Sequence record: PV763136.1 | DNA: 64,000 nt | Reading direction: 5' to 3' (one strand) | From: Escherichia phage vB_EcoM_YN3 | In this document: one piece after another, positions 5,262 through 10,691 of the stretch | Numbering within the stretch: position 1 is the stretch's first letter | How the letters are laid out: the number at the start of each line of letters is the position of its first letter | The notes under the pieces: generated by a model | What the model was told of the DNA's origin: nothing | Database searches by the model: none | What the model saw: only the letters and a program-made list of their open reading frames with translations | Translations under genes and position numbers: made by a program

Positions 5262-5318
5262 GGTTTTAACTCCTATCTATCCGGTTAATGATTGGGGGCC
5301 GCCCCCCTGACACGTTCT

Positions 5319-5346
5319 ATTATCCATATTGTAGGGCTTGATGCAA
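5319..5346 (-). promoter_or_regulatory. Sigma70-like early promoter (TTGCAT-N16-GATAAT) followed by a 5-prime GC hairpin
   Basis: Hexamers read on minus strand; hairpin GGGGGGCGGCCCCC at 5294-5307 lies between the -10 and the RBS. Confidence 0.5.
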
Positions 5347-5486
5347 GTACTTCTTTAAAAATTTTTTAAGCGCCTTGTGGGCCGCTGTAGCGCCAAAATA
5401 ATAAAGGCCATGCAACCGCATAGCCTTTATGTGATTATATCGCTGCAGGCCCTGCCATGGGCCTTATTTTGCATCATTTGCCGGAA

Positions 5487-5807
5487 TTATTCAGAGAAAA
5501 CATCGTTCACAATAGCGATCACAATGCCGCCCACCTTGTCACGGTCAACAATGCACAAATCACCATAGATCATGTGGTAGTCTGGATGATCTTTCACGGA
5601 ATAGTCAATGAGTGTCTTCTTATCGTCCAGCTTTTTGACTTCCATGGTCATTGTAATGAATTGATCGTTAAATGCACTATTGCGGAAGATCATTACCTGG
5701 CCGCCTTGACATCCAGTGATCTCAACTTCCACGCCGTCTACGATCTGACCATCAAAGAAATAAAGATTATTGGCGGGTATAAACATGATCATTGCTCCTT
5801 TTTGCAC
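5487..5807 (-). CDS. Hypothetical protein (106 aa)
   Basis: ORF; AAAGGAG RBS. Confidence 0.5.
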   Translation of the reverse strand: MQKGAMIMFIPANNLYFFDGQIVDGVEVEITGCQGGQVMIFRNSAFNDQFITMTMEVKKLDDKKTLIDYSVKDHPDYHMIYGDLCIVDRDKVGGIVIAIVNDVFSE

Positions 5808-5830
5808 TGATTATTTTAACAGGGTTTAAA

Positions 5831-5874
5831 TTTACTTTATTGATGGCCCTGGAGTCAAGGCCATCTAAAAATAA
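5831..5874. repeat. Conserved 44-bp intergenic element, copy 1 of 3 (TTTACTTTATTGATGGCCCTGGAGTCAAGGCCATCTAAAAATAA)
   Basis: Exact 44-mer also at 9552-9595 and 10174-10217; contains 7-bp inverted repeat GATGGCC/GGCCATC; each copy ends 3 nt before a minus-strand stop codon. Confidence 0.8.
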
Positions 5875-5877
5875 ACT

Positions 5878-6078
5878 TTACAGGCCTACAATCTCTTTAA
5901 TTCGTTTTACTGCTGCCTCAGCGCCTTGAGGGTAGAAATTATGATAACCAATCACGCGGGTAATACTAATTGCCGTTTGATGATCTTCATAATCGCCCTT
6001 GAAGATTTCTTGACCGTCAATCAGCACAGCAATTTTTTCTTCTTTTTTGAAGTTAATAACGCGGATATTGTTGCTCAT
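5878..6078 (-). CDS. Hypothetical protein (66 aa)
   Basis: ORF; AAAGGAGAAA RBS. Confidence 0.45.
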   Translation of the reverse strand: MSNNIRVINFKKEEKIAVLIDGQEIFKGDYEDHQTAISITRVIGYHNFYPQGAEAAVKRIKEIVGL

Positions 6079-6137
6079 TTTGTTTCTCCTTTTGGAACTT
6101 TGTCTGTGTGGTGGGGAGTGTCTCCCCGTTGATTGTT

Positions 6138-6165
6138 ATTATCCATATTCAGGACCGGATTGCAA
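6138..6165 (-). promoter_or_regulatory. Sigma70-like early promoter (TTGCAA-N16-GATAAT) followed by a 5-prime GC hairpin
   Basis: Hexamers on minus strand; hairpin GGGGAGACACTCCCC at 6113-6127. Confidence 0.5.
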
Positions 6166-6184
6166 CACCCCGGAAGAAAAATTT

Positions 6185-6219
6185 TTTGAAAAAAGTTAGG
6201 CCCCCAGGGATCGGGGGCC
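6185..6219 (-). terminator. Intrinsic terminator-like hairpin with U-tract (minus strand)
   Basis: GGCCCCCGATCCCTGGGGGCC followed on minus strand by TTTTTTCAAAAAATTTTT. Confidence 0.5.
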
Positions 6220-6223
6220 GTTA

Positions 6224-6343
6224 TCAGGTACGTACAGCGATAAAATACATCCCTACGCCTAACAATATTTCAAGGGCGATGATCTCCAGCCATACCATAA
6301 CACGGCGCGCCTTATCGGTGCGGGGCTTATCCTTGGGTGTCAT
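6224..6343 (-). CDS. Small membrane peptide (39 aa), below the ORF-track cut-off
   Basis: CAGGAGGAAAGGGGG RBS before ATG; hydrophobic core WLEIIALEILLGVGMYFIAV; hand translated. Confidence 0.35.
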   Translation of the reverse strand: MTPKDKPRTDKARRVMVWLEIIALEILLGVGMYFIAVRT

Positions 6344-6562
6344 CGTCTCCCCCTTTCCTCCTGTTAGTAGTGACGTGGTTTACAATGGTCCCCAGGAGTA
6401 CTATCGCCACGCACATTACGAGAAAAATTATCTCTGTCGTTGTTCGATCCATTGTTATAAAATTCCTTAAGATCAGGCCTGAAAATAAAGCTTTCGTTAT
6501 TGAATCCATCCCGCCAGGCGGCTGGCTTCAAATCTTCACTAAAGGGATTAATTAACGTGGTA

Positions 6563-6934
6563 TTATTTAAACGGTTGGCCCACATATTTTCTATTCCTCT
6601 CAAATAAGCGATCCGCCTCAGTTAAACAAATCTCATGGGCGTGATCTCTGGTTTTAGCTTCATCGAAAACCTGTTGTGCAAGGCTGCAACGCAGGGAGAC
6701 CGGAAGATCACTATAATAGGCGTTAACAAACGTTTGAGCGTCGTACAGGTCTGAAAATACTTTACCCTTTCTATTATTCCCCTTGTCAACAATTGCAAGG
6801 ATAACCAATACAATAGTTGCAACCGCTCCCAGGAAAATAGATATAATAAACCATAAAAAGGCGGATCTACCTATCTTGCCAGCGATCCAGGCGTTAAACA
6901 AGGCAACTAATAAGGCCAAAATAATAAATTCCAT
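6563..6934 (-). CDS. Membrane protein (123 aa, about 2 predicted TM helices)
   Basis: N-terminal hydrophobic segments MEFIILALLVALFNAWIAGK... and FLWFIISIFLGAVATIVLVILAIV. Confidence 0.5.
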   Translation of the reverse strand: MEFIILALLVALFNAWIAGKIGRSAFLWFIISIFLGAVATIVLVILAIVDKGNNRKGKVFSDLYDAQTFVNAYYSDLPVSLRCSLAQQVFDEAKTRDHAHEICLTEADRLFERNRKYVGQPFK

Positions 6935-9189: not shown

Positions 9190-9265
9190 GTGTACTTTCT
9201 CCTTTCATGGTGTTAATAAATTATCTTTATAGATGGCCCTGCAGCCAGGACCACCGAAAAAATAA

Positions 9266-9511
9266 CTATTTCACAATGCCTACAAAACAGATCCCGCCTT
9301 CACCTATGTAAGCAATATCGGTCACTTTGTAGTCGGTCAAGATCTGTTTATTCAGATCATTAATAAAGTCGGTCATCGCGTTGGTGTAGTTGTCTTCCAT
9401 GTCTAGGGAATAGTCCCAGGTGTAGACCTTTTTACGCCCAAAGCCTTTTACCATGATACGGGCGCTTTTGGTGTTGGTGGGCGCATAATATTTGGTGATT
9501 AGTGCTGCCAT
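9266..9511 (-). CDS. Hypothetical protein (81 aa)
   Basis: ORF; GAGGAG RBS. Confidence 0.45.
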   Translation of the reverse strand: MAALITKYYAPTNTKSARIMVKGFGRKKVYTWDYSLDMEDNYTNAMTDFINDLNKQILTDYKVTDIAYIGEGGICFVGIVK

Positions 9512-9551
9512 GGTTTTAACTCCTCATTAGTTCAGTGTTAACAGTGTAAAG

Positions 9552-9595
9552 TTTACTTTATTGATGGCCCTGGAGTCAAGGCCATCTAAAAATAA
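9552..9595. repeat. Conserved 44-bp intergenic element, copy 2 of 3
   Basis: Exact match to 5831-5874. Confidence 0.8.
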
Positions 9596-9597
9596 TC

Positions 9598-9939
9598 TTA
9601 CTCGTTTTCTTCCAGCTTTGCAAGCTCTTCTTTCACTTCTTCGAGCTCTGTCTGCAATTCTTGGTACTCTTCGTCGTCCTCAATATCCAGGCTGTCGATG
9701 TAGTCGCTAAATCCGCAGCGGTAAGCGATAGGATCTAACTCCTTGAGGATACGCGACGGAAGAAAAGAAATGTTTCCGATCATAATTTCGCCGTAGATCT
9801 CGTCTAACCATTCATCATAGTTTTCGTCGTACTTGTCCTCGTCGATTTCAAAGTTATCGATCTTGTTCTCAAGGTCTGCGATCTGTTTTTTCAGCGCGGC
9901 GATCTGCATAGCTTTTTCTGCGGCGGTCATAGTAGTCAT
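9598..9939 (-). CDS. Acidic coiled-coil protein (113 aa)
   Basis: Asp/Glu-rich with heptad-like N-terminal and C-terminal segments. Confidence 0.5.
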   Translation of the reverse strand: MTTMTAAEKAMQIAALKKQIADLENKIDNFEIDEDKYDENYDEWLDEIYGEIMIGNISFLPSRILKELDPIAYRCGFSDYIDSLDIEDDEEYQELQTELEEVKEELAKLEENE

Positions 9940-9990
9940 GGTGTTTTCTCCTTTTGTGTGTTCTGGGAAGTTTTCCCGTTTACGTGTTTA

Positions 9991-10018
9991 AGTATACCGA
10001 TTTGGGTTAGCTTGTCAA
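9991..10018 (-). promoter_or_regulatory. Sigma70-like early promoter (TTGACA-N16-TATACT) followed by a 5-prime hairpin
   Basis: Hairpin GGGAAAACTTCCC at 9965-9977; AAGGAG RBS. Confidence 0.55.
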
Positions 10019-10138
10019 TTAAAAATTTAAGAAAAATTTTGCAAAACTGTTGGCGCTACTCATTAACATTTGCGCCAGGATGTAACCGACAACGCAAACG
10101 ATAATAGTTACCTTTGTGTATTGGCGTGTAGTGCTCAT
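10019..10138 (-). CDS. Small hydrophobic peptide (39 aa), below the ORF-track cut-off
   Basis: AAGGGGG RBS before ATG; TM-like core VTIIVCVVGYILAQ; hand translated. Confidence 0.3.
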   Translation of the reverse strand: MSTTRQYTKVTIIVCVVGYILAQMLMSSANSFAKFFLNF

Positions 10139-10173
10139 CTTAAAGCCCCCTTTTTTCGCTTAGTTGAGACTAG

Positions 10174-10217
10174 TTTACTTTATTGATGGCCCTGGAGTCA
10201 AGGCCATCTAAAAATAA
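10174..10217. repeat. Conserved 44-bp intergenic element, copy 3 of 3
   Basis: Exact match to 5831-5874. Confidence 0.8.
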
Positions 10218-10219
10218 TC

Positions 10220-10624
10220 TTAATAAGTTTTCAGTACTTTCCCGTCTAACCTGTCAAGCTGGATCTCGATAGCTGCAGAAAACCTATTGTACACCACGTC
10301 GCCCATAGAATCCAACCAGTCTATGACATTATACACTTGCTCTTTGTTCTTGCAGGTCCGGATCCGTTTCATGATGTAAGCCGGATCAATATTGGTACTT
10401 TCGTTGGTGCTCTCCTGTACCTGGTTTGCCGTATTAGTTACATCTTTAATGGCCTTTACCACCACCTGGAATGGCTTTAAGGTGCCTTTTGCGTTCATCT
10501 CACGCGCTTTTGCGGCGCGGTTGTTATATGTTACACAACGGCGGCAAATGTTGATCAAATGCATGTCAATAATTTTTTCATCGTTTGCCAACTCGTTCAT
10601 GATGCGGCGTACGTTCTTATTCAT
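10220..10624 (-). CDS. Hypothetical protein (134 aa)
   Basis: ORF with promoter-hairpin cassette upstream. Confidence 0.5.
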   Translation of the reverse strand: MNKNVRRIMNELANDEKIIDMHLINICRRCVTYNNRAAKAREMNAKGTLKPFQVVVKAIKDVTNTANQVQESTNESTNIDPAYIMKRIRTCKNKEQVYNVIDWLDSMGDVVYNRFSAAIEIQLDRLDGKVLKTY

Positions 10625-10663
10625 GATCTTTTTTCCTTTGTGTTGGCGGGAAACATTCCCGCC

Positions 10664-10691
10664 TTTTGTGCCCAGTTTACTTGAATTTTGC
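10664..10691 (-). promoter_or_regulatory. Sigma70-like early promoter (TTGACA-N16-TAAACT) followed by a 5-prime GC hairpin
   Basis: Hairpin GGCGGGAATGTTTCCCGCC at 10636-10654. Confidence 0.5.

Follow-up and report, generated by a model that had tools for sequence, protein, structure and literature searches.

Early region and cassettes

The early region of Escherichia phage vB_EcoM_YN3 carries a recurrent intergenic element, here called a cassette, in which a sigma70-type promoter is followed at a nearly fixed distance by a GC-rich hairpin, a leader and a Shine-Dalgarno (SD) sequence. The DNA analysed is a stretch of 64,000 nt (sequence record PV763136.1), referred to as the window, and an earlier note made from its letters had placed such cassettes at positions 5294-10691. 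The feature is real, non-random and structurally conserved across two phage subfamilies. It is tentatively read as a protective or insulating hairpin near the 5' end of early transcripts, combined with an exchange module of the kind known as promoter-early stem-loops (PeSLs).

The identity of positions 5294-10691 is 96% to Escherichia phage FV3 and 93-95% to over 100 further Vequintavirus (rV5-like) genomes, and the window belongs to the genus Vequintavirus (rV5/FV3 group). All plausible genes from approximately 1600 to 27000 are on the minus strand and form a one-directional, 25-kb early-gene cluster, which matches the transcription unit of small genes without known function on the rV5 map (PMC3606486). 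The cassettes are therefore to be read on this strand.

Two classes of cassette are present between 2750 and 10720, with eight copies of class A and four of class B (Table 1). The eight class A regions share one layout, namely an A/T-rich tract, a sigma70-type promoter, a GC hairpin, a leader, an SD and a start codon; six of them lie within 5294-10691 and two outside it. Class B, a second element found before four genes of the same stretch, is a 51-nt dispersed repeat (family D1). The open reading frames (ORFs) behind the copies of both classes encode 39-207 amino acids and are annotated as hypothetical in relatives.

Layout and statistics of the class A cassettes

The earlier note had described near-consensus promoters ahead of at least six small early genes, each followed within about 10 nt by a GC stem-loop without a U-tract and then by an AGGAG-type ribosome-binding site, and this description is borne out by the six cassettes within 5294-10691. 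Over all eight cassettes, the promoters match TTGACA-N16/17-TATAAT at 8-12 of 12 positions and have A/T tracts upstream; the example given in the note, TTGACA-N16-TATAAT, is present at 8178..8151 on the minus strand with 12 matches of 12. Three promoters reach only 8-9 of 12, with TTGCAA or TTGCAT as the -35 box and GATAAT or TATATT as the -10 box. The promoter of cassette 5346 (TTGCAT-N16-GATAAT) was read by eye, and those of cassettes 10701, 10018, 7461 and 6165 score 9-11 of 12 in a consensus scan. Five of the eight are orthologues of promoters already predicted by the rV5 authors (P168, P174, P185, P192 and P194 in Table S4 of the rV5 genome paper, PMC3606486).

The hairpins begin 10-13 nt past the -10 hexamer, for example GGCGGGAAAACTTCCCGCC at 8140..8122, and one of them (cassette 10018) is weak. 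The stems are 5-8 bp long (-5.5 to -14.6 kcal/mol) with loops of 3-5 nt, and the G-rich arm is on the 5' side in eight of eight, which corresponds to an effective sample of approximately six independent hairpin types. The 8 nt 3' of the stem are A/C-rich (AACACAAA and ACCACACA among them) and contain 0-1 T in seven of the eight cassettes and 3 T in the eighth. The motifs AGGAG, AAGGAG and GAGGA precede the start codons, and the SD is unpaired in the predicted folds.

The lack of a U-tract makes the class A hairpins distinct from the T-tract terminators of the phage, which are located at 8639-8620, 6219-6199, 5430-5401 and 2956-2929, and also at 16172-16151 and 26332-26307. A scan for sense-strand terminators called 8639-8620, 6219-6199 and 5430-5401 and did not call the class A hairpins. 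In three intergenic regions (6224-6078, 5487-5261 and 2971-2758) the order is terminator, promoter, hairpin and SD. T-tract terminators t164, t177, t181, t184, t213 and t232 are given in rV5 Table S4, from which the class A hairpins are absent, and the rV5 paper makes no mention of a stem-loop after promoters (PMC3606486). In GenBank, the record of phage Gotham is annotated with software-predicted promoters only, and that of phage EdH4 labels the hairpin 10645-10663 as 'terminator'. For rV5, promoters and T-tract terminators had thus already been predicted, but not the hairpins; the database annotation, in which the hairpins have so far been either missing or called terminators, is thereby corrected.

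The constant spacing between promoter and hairpin is not due to chance. With strict criteria, six promoter/hairpin pairs were found in the early region at offsets of 10-11 nt against 0.68 expected (P ~0.0008) when the hairpin positions were shifted circularly and pairing offsets of 9-13 were counted; looser hairpin criteria gave 10 pairs against 2.06 expected in the same test. Folds of whole leaders were clearly better than those of dinucleotide shuffles in five of the eight cassettes (z -4.7 to -2.3), and the other three had z-scores of -1.2, -1.1 and 0.0. Since leader z-scores are weak for hairpins built from G/C homopolymers (the three at 0.0 to -1.2), positional enrichment and comparative conservation were relied on.

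Table 1. Class A and class B cassettes and a degenerate cassette in the window (gap, nt from the -10 hexamer to the hairpin; energies in kcal/mol)
Feature	Position	Strand	Elements	Gap	ORF	Remarks
Class A, 10701	10622..10712	(-)	A/T tract; -35 TTGACA 10696-10701; -10 TAAACT 10674-10679; hairpin GGCGGGAATGTTTCCCGCC 10645-10663; leader AACACAAAGGAAAAAAGATC; ATG 10624	10	upstream of 10220..10624 (-)	-14.6, z -4.1; rV5 P194
Class A, 10018	9937..10040	(-)	-35 TTGACA 10013-10018; -10 TATACT 9991-9996; weak hairpin GGGAAAACTTCCC 9965-9977; AAGGAG; ATG 9939	13	upstream of 9598..9939 (-)	-5.9, z -1.2; rV5 P192; 74% identity over 66 nt to cassette 8178 (repeat family D6)
Class A, 8178	8091..8200	(-)	-35 TTGACA 8173-8178; -10 TATAAT 8151-8156; hairpin GGCGGGAAAACTTCCCGCC 8122-8140; AGGAG; ATG 8093	10	upstream of 7470..8093 (-)	-14.6, z -4.7; rV5 P185
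Class A, 7461	7376..7483	(-)	-35 TTGCAA 7456-7461; -10 TATATT 7434-7439 with TGC before it; hairpin GGGGCAAACGTCTTGCCCC 7404-7422; GAGGA; ATG 7378	11	upstream of 6998..7378 (-)	-12.5
Class A, 6165	6076..6190	(-)	-35 TTGCAA 6160-6165; -10 GATAAT 6138-6143; hairpin GGGGAGACACTCCCC 6113-6127; AAGGAG; ATG 6078	10	upstream of 5878..6078 (-)	behind T-tract terminator 6199-6219 (rV5 t181)
Class A, 5346	5259..5370	(-)	-35 TTGCAT 5341-5346; -10 GATAAT 5319-5324; hairpin GGGGGGCGGCCCCC 5294-5307; AGGAG; ATG 5261	11	upstream of 4977..5261 (-)	behind T-tract terminator 5401-5430 (rV5 t177)
Class A, 4683 (outside 5294-10691)	4601..4705	(-)	-35 TTGACA 4678-4683; -10 TAGTAT 4656-4661; hairpin GGGGCAACAAGCCCC 4630-4644; GAGGA; ATG 4603	11	upstream of 4424..4603 (-)	rV5 P174
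Class A, 2841 (outside 5294-10691)	2756..2865	(-)	-35 TTGACA 2836-2841; -10 TAACAT 2813-2818; hairpin GGGCAAAAGTGCCC 2788-2801; GAGG; GTG 2758	11	upstream of 2486..2758 (-)	behind terminator 2929-2956; rV5 P168
Class B	10172..10222	(-)	10-bp stem GATGGCCTTGACTCCAGGGCCATC enclosing -35-like TTGACT, N18, TAAACT
Further class B copies	9550-9600, 5829-5879; 71% variant 9219-9269					repeat family D1
Recombinant/degenerate cassette	4361..4421	(-)	TTGACA 4411-4416; 21-nt gap; CATAAT; hairpin GGCGGCAGCGATGCCGCC 4361-4378	6

Conservation of the hairpins

Orthologous cassettes were compared in 17 other Vequintavirus sequences (18 genomes including the window), and further orthologues were added from GenBank records; a scan of IMG/VR with a 19-nt cassette anchor matched one contig. 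The hairpin of cassette 8178 is invariant across nine genomes. That of cassette 7461 occurs in nine sequence variants in the 18 genomes, all of them at -12 to -16 kcal/mol; both orientations of the loop occur, as CAAACGTCTTG and as the reverse complement CAAGACGTTTG, and a third version of the stem is GGGGCGAG/CTTGCCCC. The hairpin of cassette 10701 shows a loop inversion of the same type as well as a 1-nt deletion. The hairpins at 7404-7422 and 10645-10663 are flipped to the reverse complement between phages that are otherwise 92-97% identical, a polymorphism which suggests hairpin or cruciform intermediates in the DNA. In cassettes 6165 and 5346 both arms and loops vary, with most copies retaining -8 to -16 kcal/mol; the 5346 hairpin is the most variable in relatives, its stem being retained at -6.5 to -16 kcal/mol. 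In phage phiWec189, cassette 2841 bears a hairpin of the 7461 type in place of its own. Since the stems persist through loop inversions, indels, arm changes and outright replacement, the structure is kept while the sequence drifts, and selection appears to act on the hairpin structure and not on its sequence.

Similar leader hairpins are found in a second subfamily, Stephanstirmvirinae, where Phapecoctavirus phiWec188 has them at 15 of its 18 early promoters and Justusliebigvirus muut at 10 of 16, against 10-13% of random segments of the same DNA that are as stable. They are typically GGGCGGCA-ATGG-TGCCGCTC or GGCGGGAAA-TGG-TTTCCCGCC and start 9-11 nt past the -10 hexamer. Seunavirus SalP219 has leader hairpins at three of six promoters. 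Judged from this distribution, the cassette layout is much older than the genus Vequintavirus.

Exchange of early genes at the cassettes

When the window is aligned with eight relatives, the breakpoints of homology are located at cassettes. Phage phiWec189 lacks window positions 9609-10172. In place of two genes and the two identical class B copies on either side of them it has one class B repeat, and the junction of the deletion is inside these identical 51-nt repeats. Such a deletion is compatible with excision between neighbouring cassettes, as in the formation of mini-circles. In FV3 and JEP1, window positions 4420-4678 are replaced, the exchanged piece being bounded by the -35 TTGACA boxes of two successive cassettes. 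The replacement module of FV3 and a module of Justusliebigvirus muut are 90% identical over 282 nt, and at least 13 places in phiWec188 match the promoter-hairpin-leader part of the FV3 module. The shared segment (FV3 2340-2660, muut 10957-11238) comprises promoter, hairpin and gene, and the flanking genes are unrelated in these two phages of different subfamilies. It looks as if a single early-gene module had recently been exchanged between subfamilies.

A further trace of such events may be a 26-nt exact repeat, CTAACAAAGCATAATACATAAGGCGG (minus strand), at 3630-3655 and 4374-4399 (family D17), which breaks off within the 5' arm (GGCGG) of two different hairpins. A convincing -35 box at 16-18 nt is missing from both copies, and the repeat probably marks a recombination junction. 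At 4361-4421 it has given rise to the degenerate cassette with the 21-nt spacer, a site occupied in FV3 by an intact class A cassette. Overall, these alignments show the cassettes to be the points where related phages gain, lose and swap early genes, which is the DNA-level behaviour that defines PeSLs.

Possible function of the hairpin

A possible scheme for the function of class A cassettes can be described as follows. According to sequence rules, the host RNA polymerase would start 7-8 nt past the -10 hexamer, where a pyrimidine-purine step occurs in every cassette, leaving 3-4 5'-terminal nucleotides that are predicted to be unpaired (6 in cassette 10018). The first ~25 nt of the RNA would thus be computed to hold approximately 3-4 unpaired nucleotides and then the hairpin of 5-8 bp, with the remaining leader and the SD open; in folds of the predicted leaders the stem extends from nt 4 or 5 to approximately nt 22. 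Since no U-tract follows the hairpin, the polymerase would continue past it into the gene. The hairpin might then act as a protective, insulating cap that slows the 5'-end-dependent decay of the primary transcript, and, should read-through transcripts be cleaved within the AU-rich promoter segment just upstream, it may protect the downstream cistron as well. At the DNA level, the comparison with relatives shows that the dispersed, partly homologous cassettes serve as junctions for the gain, loss and swapping of early modules. The proposal in the earlier note that the hairpin is at the 5' end of the transcript stands in so far as the hairpin is downstream of the expected start and would be transcribed, but with the unpaired nucleotides predicted here it is not strictly at the extreme end.

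Unrelated hairpin sequences are held at a constant distance from the -10 hexamer, and therefore the function would be tied to the 5' end of the transcript. Constant spacing, separate terminators upstream and the missing U-tract together indicate that the class A hairpin would serve its own transcript rather than stop upstream transcription. In the 8 nt after the hairpins the fraction of T is 0.13, compared with 0.265 in hairpin-less leaders, over three genera (Fisher p = 6e-6), a difference to be discounted in so far as the test treats paralogous copies as independent. A 5'-proximal protective or insulating stem-loop of the ompA/papA type is plausibly the most economical reading, and protection from 5'-end-dependent decay is also the role suggested in the earlier note.

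Several points weigh against protection. RppH and RNase E need a minimum of two unpaired 5' nucleotides and prefer at least three (PMC8833179). The predicted overhang of 3-4 nt (6 nt in cassette 10018) suits both enzymes, and therefore protection may be partial or absent; it would be partial unless transcription starts nearer to the stem than predicted. One hairpin of eight, in cassette 10018, is weak (5 bp, about -5.5 to -5.9 kcal/mol), and a few orthologous hairpin copies have decayed to -3.8 to -6.9 kcal/mol. Good promoters without a hairpin are present at 11168, 11451, 8488, 14022, 14476, 19151, 20351 and 2094; within 5294-10691, four early genes carry class B instead, and promoter 8488 is the one without a hairpin. 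In the GC-richer Certrevirus CR3, leader hairpins are no commoner than background. In the literature collection that was searched, no start-site or transcriptome study on Vequintavirinae or Stephanstirmvirinae was found.

Simpler roles were set aside. A sense-strand intrinsic terminator was rejected on the lack of a U-tract (0-1 T in 8 nt in seven of eight cassettes). RNase III substrates are much longer than stems of 5-8 bp, which fall far below the required length, and an RNase III site was rejected for this reason. The unpaired SD in the folds speaks against an SD-sequestering thermometer or riboswitch, which was likewise rejected, and it is unlikely that one dimeric DNA-binding repressor serves all eight sites because the half-site sequences differ.

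According to the published view of PeSLs, the stem-loop is an attenuator or terminator that stops or damps transcription from upstream promoters and also its own transcripts, so that each small early gene would be kept at a set level with no build-up of read-through along the 25-kb cluster. This is unlikely for class A, yet it is a serious rival because it is based on an assay, in which one PeSL stem-loop of RB49/phi1 placed after a strong promoter lowered lacZ about as much as rrnB T1 did (PMC2839356). The RB49 stem-loops, read directly, likewise combine a G-rich 5' arm with the lack of a real U-tract, and the assay result accordingly counts against a purely protective hairpin. The 'terminator' label in the EdH4 record agrees with attenuation, as do the terminators in 5' untranslated regions of Pseudomonas phages that yield short RNAs (PMC10914365). 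Against attenuation, no U-tract is present and T is depleted after the stems, and T-tract terminators lie right upstream of three hairpin-bearing promoters, where the hairpin would be redundant as a terminator. Furthermore, a hairpin at +4 to +22 would abort transcription from the cassette's own near-consensus promoter, and the damping of upstream transcription needs no fixed distance from the -10 hexamer.

It is quite improbable that the cassettes are recombination elements only, i.e. inverted repeats and promoter boxes which persist by driving module exchange through homologous or microhomology recombination or mini-circles and spread along with the modules, the hairpin having no RNA role. 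The breakpoints at cassettes, even inside the GGCGG 5' arm (family D17), would be expected from such elements, and so would dispersed repeats common to different subfamilies and loop inversions typical of DNA hairpin or cruciform mutagenesis. However, homology suffices for exchange and a stable stem is not needed for it, yet the stems are kept as the sequence changes, and unrelated hairpins hold the same distance from the -10 hexamer.

A recognition site for a phage or host factor, either an RNA hairpin for an antiterminator, a stabiliser or a translational regulator or a DNA operator at +4 to +22, is also rather doubtful. The pattern YRTA-GGGCGG(C/G)A...loop...TGCCGCYC is near-invariant at many promoters of Phapecoctavirus, Justusliebigvirus, Certrevirus, Seunavirus and FV3, the G-rich arm is 5' in all class A hairpins whereas rV5 terminators show both orders, and a site just past the start would suit the operator of a repressor that shuts off early promoters. 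On the other hand, the eight hairpins of the window differ in their arms and loops (GGCGGGAA, GGGGCAA, GGGGAG, GGGGG, GGGCA), the loops invert without consequence, there is no conserved boxB-like loop, and no candidate binding protein was identified. There is a small chance that the YRTA plus GGGCGG-type hairpin (~+4 to +22), at dozens of early promoters of Vequintavirinae and Stephanstirmvirinae, is a dedicated signal and not a passive structure. Such a signal might, for example, single out early transcripts to survive selectively when host RNase E or RNA polymerase is redirected by a phage factor, a putative Srd-like protein being encoded at 38659-39639, or it might be the operator or RNA site of a factor for early-gene shut-off or antitermination.

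Antisense terminators, in which the plus-strand hairpin and the T/G-rich complement of the discriminator and -10 box would halt opposing polymerases before they collide at early promoters, are very improbable: a plus-strand scan does flag 8122-8140, 10645-10663, 7404-7422, 6109-6131 and 4630-4644 as terminator-like and promoter-like sites in the non-coding segment 458-757 are directed into the cluster, but the tails are poor U-tracts (TGTGTGTT, CCTTGAGT, TGACACGT), positions 1-27000 have no plus-strand genes, and T-richness is automatic beside an AT-rich promoter.

The cassettes offer strong, compact promoter-leader parts that are ready for use, and they pose the question whether the hairpin is a stabiliser or an attenuator. 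Phages of the rV5, phi92 and phAPEC8 types are widely isolated and are used in phage therapy and biocontrol. The cassettes also account for the places and the manner in which small genes are gained, lost and traded in the early region, across subfamilies too.

Other features of the window

The class B stem, which overlaps the -35 box, folds at -16.3 kcal/mol (z -5.1). Its promoter matches 9 of 12 at 10201, 9579 and 5858, and the flanks are T-rich on the 5' side and A-rich on the 3' side on both strands. The copies at 9550-9600 and 10172-10222 are 100% identical.

The promoter spacer is 16 nt in seven of the eight hairpin-bearing promoters; in the eight hairpin-less promoters listed above it is 17 nt in six and 16 nt in two (8488 and 14022). 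Both 16-nt and 17-nt spacers are present among the cassettes of Stephanstirmvirinae. Two strong terminators 10 kb apart, 16146-16172 and 26304-26330, are nearly identical (93% over 27 nt), each with GCCCTACCCGAAAGGGTGGGGC followed by a T-tract, and are orthologues of rV5 t213 and t232. An Rfam scan of the whole 64-kb window found no family at gathering score.

Approximately 1.5 kb at the start of the window (1-1560) has no credible ORFs; its counterpart on the rV5 map is the box marked 'non-coding'. Short direct repeats abound in it, with TGTCA-containing units at ~455-540, units of GTAAAC/TTTACA at 555-680 and the repeat families D4 and D13, and several plus-strand promoter-like sites with a TG-extended -10 box lie at 458-757. 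The segment may be an origin or packaging region. Another ORF-poor segment, 11888-12351, contains three ~65-nt tandem-like repeats (12148-12351) and three 20-nt repeats (11888-12072), and a plus-strand TTGACA-N17-CACAAT site with TG is present at 11792.

T4 Srd is reported to stimulate RNase E, and if a similar stimulation held here, 5' structure on early mRNAs would make sense, which is speculation. At 38560-39639, divergent promoters at 38588 (minus) and 38602 (plus) accompany the homologue of rV5 gp11 (38659-39639, plus strand), whose best PHROG match is a family annotated as HNH endonuclease, the weaker ones being 'Srd anti-sigma factor' and 'decoy of host sigma70'. A Pfam search of this homologue gave no match. 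The rV5 authors regarded gp11 as a probable Srd homologue (PMC3606486).

About 20 GenBank records of 'Campylobacter phage' (MG065635, MG065662, MG065672, MG065674, MG065677 and others; host C. jejuni) are 93-95% identical to this group of coliphages. Those that were fetched are flagged UNVERIFIED, and the records as a whole are probably mislabelled or carried-over coliphages.

Comparison with known systems

The class A hairpins resemble intrinsic terminators in having a GC-rich stem of 5-8 bp and a loop of 3-5 nt and in being intergenic. They differ from them since they lack a U-tract, follow a promoter rather than the end of a gene, and always have the G-rich arm on the 5' side; in our own count on rV5 sequences, T-tract terminators have both arm orders, about half each. 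Lambdoid nut/boxB and HK022 put sites are also small hairpins transcribed soon after early promoters, and they act on the transcribing polymerase. In contrast to boxB, with its conserved GNRA-like pentaloop and its partner boxA, the loops here vary and even invert; no boxA-like partner motif or N-like protein was identified in a search that was not exhaustive.

Stem-loops at the 5' terminus stabilise E. coli mRNAs such as ompA and papA, and the T7 gene 10 leader likewise has a 5'-terminal stem-loop that stabilises mRNA. According to Emory et al., the stabilising stem reportedly has to be ~2-4 nt or less from the 5' end; here, 3-4 unpaired nucleotides are predicted in seven cassettes and 6 in cassette 10018. 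The cassettes resemble these stabilisers in that a sequence-independent hairpin near the 5' end is followed by an open leader and the SD, and in the proposed action against 5'-end-dependent decay by RppH and RNase E. As in ompA-type leaders, structure and not sequence appears to matter, given the different hairpins at the same position and the stems kept over 18 genomes. References on the ompA/papA 5' untranslated regions and on synthetic 5' hairpin stabilisers (e.g. Emory, Bouvet and Belasco 1992) are listed in PMC3997798.

The closest resemblance is to the PeSLs of T4-like phages, described in RB49/phi1, PST/T4 and nt-1/KVP40 (Arbiol et al. 2010, PMC2839356; Comeau et al. 2014, PMC4122927). 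A PeSL has a strong sigma70-like promoter, an A/T-rich upstream region and a stem-loop made of a G-run, a loop and a C-run, whose position relative to the promoter boxes may be upstream, between, over or downstream (PMC2839356, PMC4122927). PeSLs stand mostly before orphan genes in hyperplastic regions, where they mediate modular shuffling and the formation of mini-circles (PMC2839356, PMC4122927). The cassettes have the same composition, i.e. a near-consensus sigma70 promoter, an upstream A/T tract, a GC stem-loop, an A/C-rich leader and an SD; they occur in many copies before small genes without known function, within an early region that is plastic, and they bound the indels and replacements between relatives. 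Class B, with its stem over the -35 box, corresponds to a main PeSL subclass, and class A to the rarer subclass 'downstream of the -10'.

There are also differences. The T4-like hosts of PeSLs are Straboviridae, whereas the cassettes here are in Vequintavirinae and Stephanstirmvirinae. Terminator activity and mini-circles are on record for the RB49/phi1 PeSLs only. When the RB49 PeSLs were read directly, nearly all stem-loops were between or over the promoter boxes and hence outside the cassette's own transcript, whereas class A dominates here, at a fixed distance and predicted to be wholly transcribed (~+4 to +22). The RB49 sequences share the G-rich 5' arm without a clear U-tract and the A/C-rich leader, one of them, AACACAAAACAAAAGGAG, being almost the same as the 7461 leader.

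The kinship with PeSLs, the cassettes as recombination junctions and the class B stem-loop over the -35 box go beyond the earlier note. By their sequence features, the cassettes are best filed as PeSL-type promoter and stem-loop elements with the hairpin inside the transcript. This extends the PeSL concept beyond T4-like phages and suggests that large virulent coliphages make general use of promoter and stem-loop cassettes.

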